A stretch of DNA of 57,442 nt, the filler included, from Candidatus Woesearchaeota archaeon (GTDB lineage: Archaea; Nanobdellota; Nanobdellia; Woesearchaeales; GCA-2685855), in assembly GCA_002685855.1 (NCBI GenBank). It is 4 parts of 4 records of this genome, joined end to end, with 100 filler letters (N's around TTAATTAATTAA, not from the genome) between each part and the next. Parts side by side here need not be neighbours in the genome. Positions count along the whole stretch, not along the records: positions 1 to 18,199 come from NYYS01000054.1; 3 more parts are not named here. One strand, given 5' to 3'. A program made the position numbers and the translations under genes. This document shows positions 12,690 through 57,442 of this stretch, one piece after another. Under the pieces are notes generated by a model that had not been told where the DNA came from, did no database searches, and was given only the letters and a program-made list of their open reading frames with translations. Position 1 is the stretch's first letter, and each line of letters begins with the position of its first letter.

Positions 12690-13677
12690 GGTGTGTTGAA
12701 ATCTCTTTTTTTGTTATACCGAGGAGGAGGAAGATGCCAAAGCCAATTGCTGACCAGATAAGATCACGGGTTCGAACAAGGAAGCTTAGTGCTATTCCGA
12801 CTGAGGCAGGAATTTTAAGGAGTGCAAATGCTCCAATCTGGCTTGCTTCCAATGATCCGAGTGCCATGGGCAGGGGCAGGATATAGGCTATTCCTATAAA
12901 TGAAAAGACGAGAAAAACCCATAGAAGGGGGATGTTATATCCAAGCATGAGAATGGCTACTTTGTATTCGAGAAACATGAATAGCCAGCTTAGAAAGCTG
13001 AAGAGGATTGCAAAGAGGAAGTGTTTTTTGTCTTCTTTATAGAATTTTATAATGAGGTTTTCGAATTCTATGAGGTTTTCTTCGAAGGATTGGAGTTGTT
13101 TAATTTTTTGCAAATGGAAGATGCGAAAGATACGATAAAAAAAGTGTTTTCCTCTAAGCATGCGGCTAAAAAAGAAGAAAATTGTGAATGCTATCAGAGA
13201 GGAAGTGATAATTGCAAGGATTTTCATGTTTTCGGGAAGGGCAACGTTCACTACAAGCACACCTATTCCTGTAATGAAGAATATACCATTAGTTGTGAGT
13301 TCTACTGTTTTGTCAATAACTACTCCTGAGAATGCCTGGTGAAAGGAAAGGCCTTTTCTTTTTAGGAGAGCGGCTCGCACGGGTTCTCCGCCGAGTTTAG
13401 CTGCAGGGGTAACATAGCTGATTGCGTAACCAACAAGGCGGTATTGGAAGAGTGAAAGGAAATCAATATAGTGTTTCTGACTTCTTAGTATTATCTGCCA
13501 TCGGGCTGTGAGTAAGACCATGATGCTGATTGAGACGAGAATATAGGTGATGAGAAGTCCGGAGGAAACGTGACTAAAGCGAAGGATTATTTCATTTAAT
13601 GAGATTTTTGAAAGGATGTAGGTAAGGATGAGTGCACCTAAGAGGAGTGTTGCGAGTGTAAGATAGTTTTTTTTCAT
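12667..13677 (-). CDS. Lysylphosphatidylglycerol synthase TM domain/flippase-like membrane protein (UPF0104)
   Basis: RWQIIL, YVTPAAKLGGEPVRA, LPMALGSLE, multiple TM segments. Confidence 0.85.
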   Translation of the reverse strand: MKKNYLTLATLLLGALILTYILSKISLNEIILRFSHVSSGLLITYILVSISIMVLLTARWQIILRSQKHYIDFLSLFQYRLVGYAISYVTPAAKLGGEPVRAALLKRKGLSFHQAFSGVVIDKTVELTTNGIFFITGIGVLVVNVALPENMKILAIITSSLIAFTIFFFFSRMLRGKHFFYRIFRIFHLQKIKQLQSFEENLIEFENLIIKFYKEDKKHFLFAILFSFLSWLFMFLEYKVAILMLGYNIPLLWVFLVFSFIGIAYILPLPMALGSLEASQIGAFALLKIPASVGIALSFLVRTRDLIWSAIGFGIFLLLGITKKEISTHHEKRDED

Positions 13678-13735
13678 CTCGTCTTCATGTGAGGAGTTTA
13701 TTTATAACTATTTTGGATTTACAGAATGGAAAATA

Positions 13736-13990
13736 CGAGCCTGGGGGGACTTTCACACAACTTTTTCATTAAAATGCGACTCGGCGGGTTCGAGCTTGTC
13801 TCGTACCCTCCATTTTTGCCGCGACTTTTTGAAAAAGTCGCTTTTGAACCCCCGACCTACAGCTTAGGAGGCTGTTGCCCTATCTATCCAAACCAAAACC
13901 TCTCAGGGGGACTAAGCGACATAGTCACGCATGTCGCCCACTTTTCCCGAGGCTTTTTTGAAAAAGGCTCCCAGACTAGGCTACAGGCTC
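13736..13990 (-). tRNA. tRNA-Arg(CCT) with two introns: exons 13990-13971, 13883-13843, 13749-13736; introns 13970-13884 (87 nt, 19/20) and 13842-13750 (93 nt, 59/60)
   Basis: Spliced 75-nt product GAGCCTGTAGCCTAGTCTGG|ATAGGGCAACAGCCTCCTAAGCTGTAGGTCGGGGGTTCAAA|TCCCCCCAGGCTCG folds as a full cloverleaf; both junctions form relaxed BHB motifs. Confidence 0.9.
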
Positions 13991-14011
13991 GTAGAAGTGA
14001 AAATCCATTAA

Positions 14012-14019
14012 TATTTAAA
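14012..14019 (-). promoter_or_regulatory. Archaeal TATA box for tRNA-Arg (region shared with divergent truD)
   Basis: TTTAAATA on the minus strand 22-29 nt upstream of tRNA G1. Confidence 0.65.
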
Positions 14020-14041
14020 TGGTTTACTGCTTTCTAACAGA

Positions 14042-15070
14042 ATGGTTGTAATTAAAGCAAAGCCCGAAGACTTTTTGGTGAGAGAGGTTGCTGAGCTCGA
14101 TCTCTCTGGCGGAAGTCATAGTGTGTATGAACTGAAAAAGAAGGGTATGACTACAGATCAGGCTCTTTTTGGTGTGAGAAAGGCGTGGCGGGTTAAGAGG
14201 ATAGGGTATGCCGGGCTGAAAGACCGGCAGGCAGTCACCTGGCAGCATATTTCTATTTTGAATGGCAGGAAGGCTGATTTGAAGGGGGATGGTTTTTCTC
14301 TTCGCTATCTTGGAAAATCTCCACAGGGGATTGTACTTGGTGGTCTTATAGGGAATGGGTTTGAGATTGTTGTTCGTGATATTGATCCGAGCAGGGTTGA
14401 TCAAGTTGAGGATGTGGAACAGATTCCCAATTATTTTGATGAGCAACGATTTTCTGAAAGGAATGTAGAGGTTGGGAGATTGTTGGTTGCAAAAGAGTTT
14501 GCTAAGGCTGCTGCTTTGCTTGCAGAGGGGACAGGAAGAGAGGAGTTAGGGGTACTACGGTTTTTGGAGGCTGAGCCGGGCAATGCTATTGGAGCGTTGC
14601 GTACTTTGGATCAGAAGTTGTTATTATTGTTTGTTCATTCTTTTCAGAGTTTGTTGTTTAATGAATGTCTGGGGCGACTGATTCGTTCAAAGAGTTCGCG
14701 GTTTTTTCTTGTTCCTTATTCAGAAGGAGAGTTTGTATTTCCTGAGGATTCTCTTTCGATAGGAGATATTCCTCTCCCGGGTTTTTCGGTGTCGTATTCT
14801 GGAGAGGAAGGAGATATGATGAAGAGGGTGATGTCTGAACAGGGTGTTCAGGAAAGGGATTTTATTTTGAAATCTCTTGCAGGATTGAGTTGTGAGGGAA
14901 GTTTCCGTTCGGGATTTGTTGATGTGAAGGATCTTTCGTTTGGTTGGGATGAGGATGAGATGAATAATGGAAGAAAGAAGTGTTTGATAAGGTTCAATTT
15001 AGGGTCGGGGAGTTATGGGACGATCGTGGTAAAGGCGTTGTTCAGGAAAGTGCTTCAAGACAGGCAGTGA
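14042..15070 (+). CDS. truD: tRNA pseudouridine(13) synthase TruD/Pus7
   Basis: PEDFLVRE, GYAGLKDRQAVTWQ, GNGFEIVVR, PNYFDEQRF, FNLGSGSYGT. Confidence 0.92.
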   Translation: MVVIKAKPEDFLVREVAELDLSGGSHSVYELKKKGMTTDQALFGVRKAWRVKRIGYAGLKDRQAVTWQHISILNGRKADLKGDGFSLRYLGKSPQGIVLGGLIGNGFEIVVRDIDPSRVDQVEDVEQIPNYFDEQRFSERNVEVGRLLVAKEFAKAAALLAEGTGREELGVLRFLEAEPGNAIGALRTLDQKLLLLFVHSFQSLLFNECLGRLIRSKSSRFFLVPYSEGEFVFPEDSLSIGDIPLPGFSVSYSGEEGDMMKRVMSEQGVQERDFILKSLAGLSCEGSFRSGFVDVKDLSFGWDEDEMNNGRKKCLIRFNLGSGSYGTIVVKALFRKVLQDRQ

Positions 15071-18199: not shown

Positions 18200-18299
18200 N
18201 NNNNNNNNNNNNNNNNNNNNNNNNNNNNNNNNNNNNNNNNNNNTTAATTAATTAANNNNNNNNNNNNNNNNNNNNNNNNNNNNNNNNNNNNNNNNNNNN
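18200..18299. other. Assembly spacer with artificial linker
   Basis: N-run containing TTAATTAATTAA (18244-18255), stops in all frames. Confidence 0.97.
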
Positions 18300-26961: not shown

Positions 26962-27048
26962 TAGCCCCGCACGGATTCGAACCGTGGTCGCCAGGTCCAG
27001 AGCCTGACATGACTGGCCTCAAAGATTTGGCCACTACACTACGGGGCT
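26962..27048 (-). tRNA. tRNA-Gln(CTG) with 14-nt intron at 21/22 (27026-27013)
   Basis: AGCCCCGTAGTGTAGTGGCCAA[ATCTTTGAGGCCAG]TCATGTCAGGCTCTGGACCTGGCGACCACGGTTCGAATCCGTGCGGGGCTA; A1:U72 pair; GGCC/GGCC central helix. Confidence 0.93.
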
Positions 27049-28910: not shown

Positions 28911-29010
28911 NNNNNNNNNNNNNNNNNNNNNNNNNNNNNNNNNNNNNNNNNNNNTTAATTAATTAANNNNNNNNNNNNNNNNNNNNNNNNNNNNNNNNNN
29001 NNNNNNNNNN
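28911..29010. other. Assembly spacer with artificial linker
   Basis: N-run containing TTAATTAATTAA (28955-28966). Confidence 0.97.
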
Positions 29011-46096: not shown

Positions 46097-46196
46097 NNNN
46101 NNNNNNNNNNNNNNNNNNNNNNNNNNNNNNNNNNNNNNNNTTAATTAATTAANNNNNNNNNNNNNNNNNNNNNNNNNNNNNNNNNNNNNNNNNNNN
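46097..46196. other. Assembly spacer with artificial linker
   Basis: N-run containing TTAATTAATTAA (46141-46152). Confidence 0.97.
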
Positions 46197-56954: not shown

Positions 56955-57442
56955 ATGAAACTCGGAATAAACACAGGATTTGCACTCAACAGATTTCCAC
57001 GACCCGAACAATGGCTCAAAATCGTAGGAAAAGACCTTGGACTCAAATATGTCCAACTCACAGCAGACCTATTAAACCCGTCCTGGGGAGAAGCCATTGT
57101 CAACGACTACATCGACAGAATCAACGCCCTAAAAATAACCTACAACGTAGAGATCGACAGCGTCATGACCGGCGCATTCACTAGAGTAAACCACTTCAGC
57201 CACCCCGACCCCCACGTCAGAAGATACTGGATCAACTGGTTCAAACAGCTAGCAGACATCACAAAAAGATTAGGAGCAACAAACCTCTCAAGCCACTTTG
57301 GCATCATGAGCCACGAAGACGTCAACGACCCAATAAAAAGAGAACAAGCAACCTCATTAACCGTAGCAGCATGGAAAGAGATCGCAGAATACGGAAAACA
57401 GATCGGCCTTCAATACCTCAGCTGGGAACCTATGAGCGTCAA
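56955..57442 (+). CDS. Sugar-phosphate isomerase/epimerase (TIM barrel, EryC-like), 3' truncated; not in the ORF track
   Basis: MKLGINTGFALNRFPRPE..QLTADLLNPSW..MTGAFTRVNHFSHPD..WFK..WEPMSV. Confidence 0.8.
   Translation, partial: MKLGINTGFALNRFPRPEQWLKIVGKDLGLKYVQLTADLLNPSWGEAIVNDYIDRINALKITYNVEIDSVMTGAFTRVNHFSHPDPHVRRYWINWFKQLADITKRLGATNLSSHFGIMSHEDVNDPIKREQATSLTVAAWKEIAEYGKQIGLQYLSWEPMSV

Follow-up and report, generated by a model that had tools for sequence, protein, structure and literature searches.

A tRNA-Arg(CCU) gene interrupted by two introns

We analyzed a 57,442-nucleotide (nt) stretch of DNA, hereafter the window, from a Candidatus Woesearchaeota archaeon (assembly GCA_002685855.1). 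The genome is a metagenome bin of 953 kb in 66 contigs (94% complete, 0.9% contamination), and the window consists of four of these contigs (C54-C57) joined by N spacers at positions 18200-18299, 28911-29010, and 46097-46196. The minus-strand feature at 13990..13736 is a 255-nt tRNA-Arg(CCU) gene of three exons and two introns, and both introns belong to a family of structured elements that interrupt other tRNA genes of the same genome. Read along the minus strand, the parts of the gene and its flanks are the following.

14012..14019, minus strand: TATA-like box TTTAAATA, at -29..-22 relative to the tRNA start
13971..13990, minus strand: exon 1, 20 nt; acceptor 5′ strand, U8, D-stem 5′ strand, and D-loop to G19
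13884..13970, minus strand: intron 1, 87 nt, at D-loop position 19/20; the sole D-loop copy in the element family
13843..13883, minus strand: exon 2, 41 nt, A20-A59; D-stem 3′ strand, anticodon arm, variable loop, T-stem 5′ strand, and UUCAAA
13866..13868, minus strand: anticodon CCT, within the loop CUCCUAA
13750..13842, minus strand: intron 2, 93 nt, at T-loop position 59/60; a T-loop copy in the same element family
13736..13749, minus strand: exon 3, 14 nt; U60, T-stem 3′ strand, acceptor 3′ strand, and discriminator G73
13729..13735, minus strand: T-rich trailer TATTTTC, directly after G73, a likely terminator

Joining the three exons by script gives 75 nt, identified by ARAGORN as tRNA-Arg(cct) (the run used arbitrary 8-nt flanks, and 77 nt were drawn). 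The canonical cloverleaf that a sequence-only reading of this DNA had expected from removal of 87 nt at 19/20 and 93 nt at 59/60 is therefore recovered. The spliced stems are complete (acceptor 7/7, D 4/4, anticodon 5/5, and T 5/5), with 20 Watson-Crick pairs and one G-U pair, the latter in the D-stem, among the 21 stem pairs. The D-loop reads AGUCUGGAUA, the T-loop reads UUCAAAU, and U8, G18G19, and U33 are present. A20, the first base of exon 2, is an arginine identity element. CCA is not encoded at the 3′ end of exon 3.

The unspliced DNA yields no tRNA by ARAGORN and no Rfam match at the gathering score, and a whole-genome search with the Rfam tRNA model (E ≤ 10) does not list the unspliced gene. 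ARAGORN also accepts an alternative 88-nt intron 1 with the cut after nt 14; we rejected this solution because it removes G18G19 and conflicts with the orthologues. A 103-amino-acid (aa) open reading frame that covers the region on the plus strand (13726-14037) matches no Pfam family.

Splice motifs and predicted folds

Both introns are bounded by the elements of a bulge-helix-bulge motif. The outer and central helices (h and H) are CCUA/UAGG and GUCU/GGAU in intron 1, and GGGGG/CCCCC and UUCA/UGAA in intron 2. The 3′ bulges are 3 nt long in both cases (AG|A in intron 1, AG|U in intron 2), and each 5′ bulge faces a single base (U at 13890 in intron 1, G at 13756 in intron 2). The helices, the 3-nt 3′ bulges, and the extra base had been named in the sequence-only reading, and all were found in both introns. 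In each 3-nt bulge, the cleavage site of the splicing endonuclease EndA lies after the second base. Applied to both introns, this rule gives exactly the canonical tRNA product, and the geometry of 3-nt bulges around a 4-base-pair (bp) helix, present at both junctions, fits both introns exactly.

The predicted minimum-energy fold of the precursor has a free energy of -106.1 kcal/mol (z = -6.1; 0 of 200 shuffles as stable) and contains the acceptor stem and the anticodon arm. It also contains the motif of intron 2, with the 5-bp T-stem, the 4-bp UUCA/UGAA helix, two 3-nt bulges, and a 12-bp helix (h′) that pairs the two ends of the intron. Apart from the base opposite the 5′ bulge, intron 2 is complete as a helix-bulge-helix-bulge-helix motif (hBHBh′), with h of 5 bp, H of 4 bp, and h′ of 12 bp. 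In intron 1, H includes two G-U pairs and h′ has 4 bp.

Within the introns lie two hairpins, P1 at the 5′ end and P2 in the center.

13949..13970, minus strand: P1 hairpin of intron 1, GAGCC-U5-C-A6-GCCUC, one C.C mismatch
13906..13940, minus strand: P2 central hairpin of intron 1, GGGCGAC...GUCCCCC, inner stem GCGACAU/AUGUCGC
13821..13841, minus strand: P1 hairpin of intron 2, GCGAC-U5-C-A5-GUCGC, perfect stem
13782..13812, minus strand: P2 central hairpin of intron 2

The two introns thus begin with the same hairpin motif, as had been noted from the sequence, with a perfect stem in intron 2 and a single mismatch in intron 1. The 5′ strand of P1 has a second predicted partner in each intron: it also forms h′ with 13891-13894 in intron 1, and the 12-bp h′ with 13757-13768 in intron 2. 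Because forcing the local P1 hairpin in intron 2 breaks the motif, at a cost of 8.8 kcal/mol, P1 and the splice helix appear to be exclusive alternatives. A competition between the two in intron 2 had been proposed earlier. The same bases are indeed used by both, but the predicted fold prefers the splice helix by the same 8.8 kcal/mol.

Orthologues, promoter box, and contigs of sequencing runs

With the 255-nt gene as query, we searched 40 relatives, every one representing a separate family within the order. Exon 1 matches relatives at 94-100%, and exon 2 is 86-93% identical to tRNA-Arg exons in at least 15 of them. The matches to exon 1 and exon 2 abut in three genomes (G010, G022, and G032), and in G010 the predicted exon 1/exon 2 junction reads AGTCTGGATAGGG. 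An uninterrupted 75-nt tRNA-Arg(CCU), collinear with the spliced product, is present at six loci of relatives (L007, L013, L014, L015, L016, and L018). Elsewhere, the same sites hold introns of unrelated sequence and length: a 45-nt D-loop intron in L017, and D-loop and T-loop introns of 25 and 44 nt in L010. L019 has a 62-nt D-loop intron together with a 71-nt canonical intron. Read by eye, L003 and L005 contain both D-loop and T-loop introns, and L020 contains three introns, whose starts resemble those of Arg introns 1 and 2.

The promoter box is shared as well. A TTTAAA/TATAAA-like box is found at about the same distance before approximately 14 of the 22 listed tRNA starts, with and without introns (counted by eye). 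A scan for sigma-70 promoters and intrinsic terminators, which was not designed for archaea, was negative.

In sequencing run X1, which may be the source of this DNA, a 1921-nt contig spans the whole gene with 0 differences. Two runs from other studies, X2 and X3, contain an identical piece of 186 nt (185 nt in X3) that corresponds to exon 1 and most of intron 1. Contigs of other organisms match exon 2 only and diverge at its borders.

A single EndA without loop insertions

The genome encodes one EndA of 211 aa (C25:2953-3585, minus strand, equivalent to L001:1474-2109; E = 1.5e-29), with the N-terminal and catalytic domains PF02778 and PF01974, and the ligase RtcB (E = 1.3e-169). We found no second subunit or paralogue: there is one PF01974 match at E ≤ 1, and tblastn with EndA gives no second hit below E = 0.99. 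A three-unit EndA of about 390 aa was likewise not found in the genome. Because the genome is 94% complete, a second EndA gene may lie in the missing part. A single enzyme is the rule in this order: 40 of the 41 genomes searched have one strong EndA match, with open reading frames mostly of 175-246 aa.

The nearest named homologues of this EndA come from "Candidatus Woesearchaeota archaeon" and "Nanoarchaeota archaeon" genomes, and its best solved relative is the alpha subunit of N. equitans (E = 1.2e-37). N. equitans alpha and the ARMAN-2 enzyme carry a lysine-rich insertion, of 6 and 5 extra residues respectively, that separates the catalytic Tyr from the His; this EndA has none. Its residues 66-211 (146 residues) align to 145 residues of the M. 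jannaschii alpha4 EndA, leaving no room for a loop (the loops L1, L2, and L3 are taken as defined in the relevant parts of PMC5829648 and PMC3239211). The sequence-only reading had called for a broad-specificity enzyme; one of two subunits or of three units was not found, and in its place is a single alpha-type protein without a known insertion. Beyond the aligned part, the protein has just one additional segment, a lysine-rich tail about 40 aa long at its N-terminus. Every one of the 7 Woesearchaeota or Nanoarchaeota homologues compared has such a tail, of 15-80 aa, and by eye none has the Tyr-His insertion. We speculate that the lysine-rich tail might be an RNA-binding determinant that helps to bind relaxed substrates.

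A family of structured introns in one genome

The 12-mer CTTTTTCAAAAA sits 4-5 nt after the 5′ cut in both Arg introns, and these are 2 of its 8 occurrences in the genome, counted on both strands. A search of other tRNA introns for the shared hairpin, which the sequence-only reading had suggested, uncovered a third such intron in the T-loop of tRNA-Gln(UUG) on C51, and profile searches uncovered more. In total, the family has nine copies in eight tRNA genes (alignment A1) of a structured element of about 90 nt. Eight copies are at T-loop position 59/60, in Arg (intron 2), Gln, Ser, Ala, Lys, Leu on C14, Leu on C61, and a tRNA on C18 that reads by eye as Asn(GUU). The ninth, Arg intron 1, is in the D-loop.

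The copies share a common plan: the P1 hairpin, a purine-rich linker that starts with CGG, and the P2 hairpin closed by GAC...GUC. To this plan the T-loop copies add a 3′ adapter, which consists of an A-run and a degenerate copy of the P1 3′ strand, followed by YGAA-AG. All nine copies score 50-85 bits with model R1, of which they are also the training set; Arg intron 1, a training sequence like the others, scores 50.6 bits. Since R1 gives no tenth copy below E = 0.1 in this genome, all nine copies here are intronic. By comparison, nhmmer with a six-member profile found three of the nine.

In A1, compensatory changes occur in 8 of the 10 pairs of P2. When relatives are added (alignment A2), 91.4% of cells in P2 pair, versus 72.1 ± 2.0% in shuffles (0 of 500 as high) and 18-49% with slid partners, with the qualification that A2 was fitted to the model and includes weak hits and therefore leans towards the P2 structure. 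P1 pairing also appears, by eye, to be kept through compensatory changes, its 5′ strand being placed in different columns by MAFFT and by the model alignment.

Two subfamilies can be distinguished. Arg intron 1, Arg intron 2, and the Gln intron have the U5/A5 hairpin, and the other six copies have a UCUUUCAAAGA hairpin. Within the first subfamily, local alignment scores are 64 for intron 1 and Gln, 44 for intron 2 and Gln, and 35 for introns 1 and 2, versus about 15 ± 3 in shuffles (0 of 1000 reaching the observed score in each case); these shuffles keep base composition only, so that A and T runs inflate the significance. Aligned at one common offset from the 5′ cut, the two Arg introns agree at 25 of 29 positions. 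Intron 1 and the Gln intron have GACATGCG and GCTTAGTC in common, and intron 2 and the Gln intron have both ends in common. Together, the shared segments and the scores indicate that the two Arg introns are related and that the closest relative of intron 1 is the Gln T-loop intron rather than intron 2. The shared origin proposed for the two introns is thus upheld, and it is widened to a family of nine. Related introns in different tRNA genes, at two positions, and within one genome are the pattern by which intron transposition is recognized.

The element matches no Rfam family. With Rfam, both at the gathering score and at E ≤ 1, neither a group I or group II ribozyme core nor any curated small RNA, box C/D RNAs included, was matched in the introns; the small-RNA search returned tRNA only, and no C/D or H/ACA boxes were seen in the element. 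Nor do the introns, at 87 and 93 nt, show an open reading frame of the homing-endonuclease kind, the 103-aa frame on the plus strand being without a Pfam family.

Interrupted genes in the tRNA set

Only 11 tRNAs exceed the Rfam cut-off in this genome, and ARAGORN with introns allowed reports 16. Because the genome is 94% complete, the interrupted genes must be its working set. In a split-tRNA scan, ARAGORN confirmed 29 of 627 candidate assemblies, at 18 loci that include tRNA-Arg(CCU), versus 0 of 369 in the reversed genome. The scan recovered interrupted genes for Pro, Ile, Ser, Cys, Leu, Gln (two), Ala, Met, Glu, and Lys. At least three of the 18 loci (C51:15940; C54:14459-14774, which is inside truD; and C18:55392) appear to be false or duplicate solutions. 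Since the scan also missed real genes (L003, L005, L020, Leu on C14 and C61, and Arg(UCU) on C35), the census is a lower bound.

A loose scan for T-loop introns gave 229 matches versus 104 in the reversed genome, which was too noisy, and it was replaced by a strict scan that demands G53, UUCR, a 4-bp helix with the intron 3′ end, C61, the T-stem, and an upstream acceptor partner followed by U8. With the strict scan, 14 introns at 59/60 were found in the genome and 1 in its reversed version. Each of the 14 has YGRARG as its 3′ end (GAAAG in 12 cases), with U60 and C61 next; the pairings were demanded by the scan and are hence not independent evidence.

No second tRNA-Arg(CCU) was found in the 94%-complete genome by ARAGORN, the Rfam tRNA model, or the split scan. 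Among 51 CCU-type anticodon hairpins, a T-arm follows only in the gene described here. Its codon AGG is used 6.96 times per 1000 codons in 329 long open reading frames and makes up 15% of arginine codons. A tRNA-Arg(UCU) is located on C35 at about 2094-1983 (minus strand), with an intron of about 35 nt at the edge of the D-loop and D-stem; ARAGORN mis-calls it as a wrong 74-nt gene without the true 5′ part.

tRNA-Gln(UUG) is encoded twice (C51:15538-15375, minus strand, and C63:6232-6348, plus strand) with identical 73-nt exons and different T-loop introns, one being the 91-nt family element and the other an unrelated intron of 44 nt. This pair could reflect intron turnover or two strains in one bin. 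On C18 (57513-57102, minus strand), two tRNA genes are separated by 6 nt (end of the first at 57328, start of the second at 57321) and have T-loop introns of 94 and 134 nt; the first, Asn(GUU) by eye, also has a canonical intron, and the second is Ile(GAU). In the window itself, positions 26962-27048 (minus strand; C55:8663-8749, 87 nt) are called tRNA-Thr(agt) by ARAGORN with default settings; permitting introns changes the call to tRNA-Gln(ctg) with an intron of 14 nt. The intron-bearing Gln(CUG) is more likely because the start AGCCCCG, with A1-U72, matches that of the Gln genes.

Next to the tRNA-Arg(CCU) gene, a gene for the pseudouridine synthase TruD occupies 14042-15070 on the plus strand (Pfam E = 1.7e-58). 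Its ATG is 51 nt from the tRNA start (13991-14041), and the TATA box of the tRNA lies 23 nt from this ATG. A sign change of GC skew near 18 kb coincides with a contig join and marks neither an origin nor a terminus.

Copies of the element outside tRNA genes in relatives

Model R1 also gives weaker matches (E between 2e-5 and 8e-3) in 6 of the 40 relatives, several of them not in tRNAs. L033 (G013) and L035 (G023) are intergenic, and L034 (G037) directly follows an uninterrupted tRNA. L033 aligns with Arg intron 1 across GCGACATGCG...CGCTTAGTC. In addition, a 26-nt motif that covers P1 and the linker occurs six times in three other named Woesearchaeota or Nanoarchaeota bins. One of these bins has two tandem element cores (L044, JANQND010000019.1:41295-41720) directly upstream of an open reading frame, which may resemble aspartate decarboxylase PanD. 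L045 (JAAOYF010000066.1) is a copy beside the 3′ end of a tRNA-Glu gene, flanked by a 12-nt direct repeat that equals the 3′ end of this tRNA-Glu plus its trailer. L046 is a 101-nt intron near a tRNA anticodon, L047 and L049 are free-standing, and L048 (JAAOYF010000027.1) is a tandem array with the 17-nt repeat ATGGTAAGTGTATGCTT. A near-identical string, ATGGTAAGTGTATACTT, with one difference from ATGGTAAGTGTATGCTT, is located upstream of the element at L042.

TATA-like boxes precede some of the outside copies (L035/L049, L047, and L048). By eye, the outside copies are without the 3′ adapter carried by the intronic copies. When the ends of nine outside copies were examined for cutting motifs, each gave 0-2 loose matches, which does not exceed the roughly 0.75 per copy that we estimate for chance.

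Interpretation and alternative explanations

The anatomy of the gene, the orthologues, the promoter box, and the enzymes present bear out the claim of a hidden tRNA-Arg(CCU) with two non-canonical introns of the bulge-helix-bulge type. We consider it very probable that this is a working tRNA-Arg(CCU) gene of a Woesearchaeota-type DPANN archaeon, and that its two EndA-type introns are copies of one structured element that has spread. From the observed features we infer how the gene would be transcribed, cut, and ligated, and in which direction and by what mechanism the element would have spread. A precursor of about 255 nt would probably be transcribed from the gene's own TATA box, and EndA would cut it at the two bulge-helix-bulge-like motifs. 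In the D-loop, a register-shifted D-stem (CCUA/UAGG) would stack on GUCU/GGAU, with cuts at GG|G and AG|A. In the T-loop, the T-stem would stack on UUCA/UGAA, with cuts at AA|A and AG|U, and the 12-bp helix of the intron ends would close the motif. RtcB would join the three exons into the 75-nt tRNA, and CCA would be added afterwards.

The element itself would have spread through the tRNA genes of the genome. Because every tRNA supplies half of a cutting motif at 59/60 (the T-stem and UUCR), we suggest that the T-loop is the usual home of the element, and this offers a simple reason for the hot spot. The intron would bring the other half, the 3′ end YGAA-AG and the 3′ copy of the P1 strand, and an element so equipped could settle in any tRNA. 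The D-loop copy would be a transposed relative with the 3′ end GGAU-AG, which would let it pair with the D-loop. A near-complete DPANN genome that seems to lack most of its tRNAs would then have the genes, interrupted mostly in the T-loop and missed by standard finders.

Several observations weigh against this interpretation. Splicing of tRNA-Arg(CCU) is deduced from sequence and predicted folds; no RNA run was found to cover positions 13600-14100, and the DNA contigs of X1-X3 contain neither joints nor an intron-less form. Intron 1 takes another register in the minimum-energy fold, and its splice-competent constrained fold is 6.5 kcal/mol less stable. Neither motif has the strict hBHBh′ form, given one unpaired base opposite each 5′ bulge, and the sole EndA is alpha-type without a loop insertion although both motifs are relaxed. 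U5 runs, which could serve as archaeal terminators, lie on the transcribed strand in both introns. A UCU-anticodon tRNA-Arg could wobble-read AGG, and the tRNA-Arg(CCU) gene therefore need not be essential. As for the family, the alignment scores are inflated by A and T runs as described above, and leave-out sequence profiles fail to bridge the subfamilies (Arg intron 1 at E = 0.46, intron 2 not found, Gln at E = 0.056), so that the link to the TCTTTCAAAGA subfamily is carried by the architecture and by the model trained on all nine copies.

One alternative accepts the tRNA gene as real and sees the introns mainly as carriers of a useful small RNA (P1-linker-P2) that splicing would release, probably in circular form. 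The copies would then be retained for this product rather than reflect selfish spread. The compensatory changes that keep P2 paired, and P1 by eye, would fit such a role, as would the element's presence outside tRNA genes in relatives, where some copies stand behind TATA-like boxes, one directly follows a tRNA (L034), a tandem pair precedes a gene (L044), and the 3′ adapter of the intronic copies appears to be absent. However, the element has no Rfam family and no visible C/D or H/ACA boxes, its many copies, changing contexts, and direct repeats (12 nt at L045, 17 nt at L048) look like mobile DNA, and young copies would show conserved pairing even without selection. We regard this function as unlikely, though a serious contender. 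A broader form of the idea is similarly doubtful: tRNA genes might double as hosts of a conserved structured small RNA, all nine copies of which are tRNA introns here and would be released, probably as a stable circle, and whose core occurs outside tRNA genes in other Woesearchaeota. That RNA would have two exclusive folds (P1 or the splice helix), and the loop-less single EndA would handle its near-canonical substrates perhaps through the lysine-rich N-terminal tail.

It is far less plausible that the locus is a disrupted relic, a former tRNA-Arg(CCU) inactivated by two mobile-element insertions and left unspliced, with AGG read by tRNA-Arg(UCU). The deduced nature of splicing, the internal U5 runs, the relaxed motifs beside a plain alpha-type EndA, and the potential of the C35 tRNA-Arg(UCU) to read AGG would all be expected of a relic. 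Yet none of the 21 stem pairs or conserved loop bases has been lost, the cuts coincide exactly with those predicted from the helices and bulges, the promoter box is kept, and in other families of the order the orthologues combine conserved exons with introns at these sites. Moreover, with interrupted genes counted as dead, a 94%-complete genome would have no more than about 11 tRNAs. A chance cloverleaf from unrelated fragments, or a chimeric contig in a bin of 66 contigs, is effectively refuted by the 0 of 369 in the reversed genome, by the identity of the X1 contig over the whole gene and of the X2 and X3 pieces over exon 1 and most of intron 1, and by the same architecture in relatives.

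With the locus read as a working gene, two points gain in interest. How a single EndA without known specificity loops processes motifs that are not strictly canonical becomes a biochemical question, and the occurrence of the same folded element outside tRNA genes in related genomes provides a handle on the origin and movement of protein-spliced introns.

Comparison with known systems

In Euryarchaeota, the intron of tRNA-Trp carries a box C/D guide RNA, which is released in circular form by EndA and ligase; Clouet d'Orval 2001 is the work named on this in PMC12558985. The introns described here are similar in that a structured RNA is housed in a tRNA intron. They differ in having no C/D boxes or Rfam match, and in forming nine copies in many tRNAs versus one conserved host.

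Thermoproteales have multi-intron tRNAs and "large-scale intron transposition" (Sugahara 2008; Fujishima 2010, both as presented in parts of PMC4090602 and of the Asgard preprint bioRxiv 10.64898/2026.10.13.758758). According to these parts, up to three EndA-spliced introns per tRNA occur there at non-canonical sites, related introns recur across tRNA genes and positions, and spread is limited by the need to rebuild the bulge-helix-bulge motif, all of which resembles the situation in this genome. Unlike in those accounts, the host here is a Woesearchaeota-type DPANN archaeon rather than a crenarchaeon, and it has a single alpha-type EndA instead of an (alpha-beta)2 enzyme with the crenarchaeal loop. 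The family of about 90 nt with two conserved hairpins, with eight of nine copies at 59/60 and relatives outside tRNA genes, is a further difference from what is described there.

Multi-intron tRNAs, the 59/60 site, and relaxed motifs are already documented in the portion of PMC3239211 consulted. The tRNA-Cys of ARMAN-2 is similar in its T-loop site at 59/60, in its relaxed motif with the T-stem as outer helix, and in its DPANN host. As given there, its intron is 13 nt long and its enzyme is a three-unit epsilon2 EndA with a lysine-bearing insertion; the introns here are structured and of 87-134 nt, and the 211-aa EndA has no insertion. Kaneta 2018 (PMC5829648), in the excerpts available, describes several DPANN lineages in which single-unit EndAs coincide with many disrupted tRNA genes, and takes incomplete tRNA sets as a sign of disrupted genes yet to be identified; its genomes included one from Woesearchaeota. 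The same excerpts attribute broad specificity to an "L3" loop, with loop-bearing alpha4 enzymes accompanying tRNA disruption in DPANN. In contrast, this EndA has no insertion relative to that of M. jannaschii over residues 66-211.

In the literature searched, which includes the sources above in part, we found no description of a structured tRNA intron family in Woesearchaeota, nor of a concentration at 59/60 with one D-loop offshoot, of relatives of such an element outside tRNAs, or of their coexistence with a loop-less single EndA. We rate the tRNA-Arg(CCU) gene itself as ordinary for its lineage. The novelty lies in the element family, through which the "intron transposition" of Thermoproteales would extend to a marine Woesearchaeota-type archaeon.

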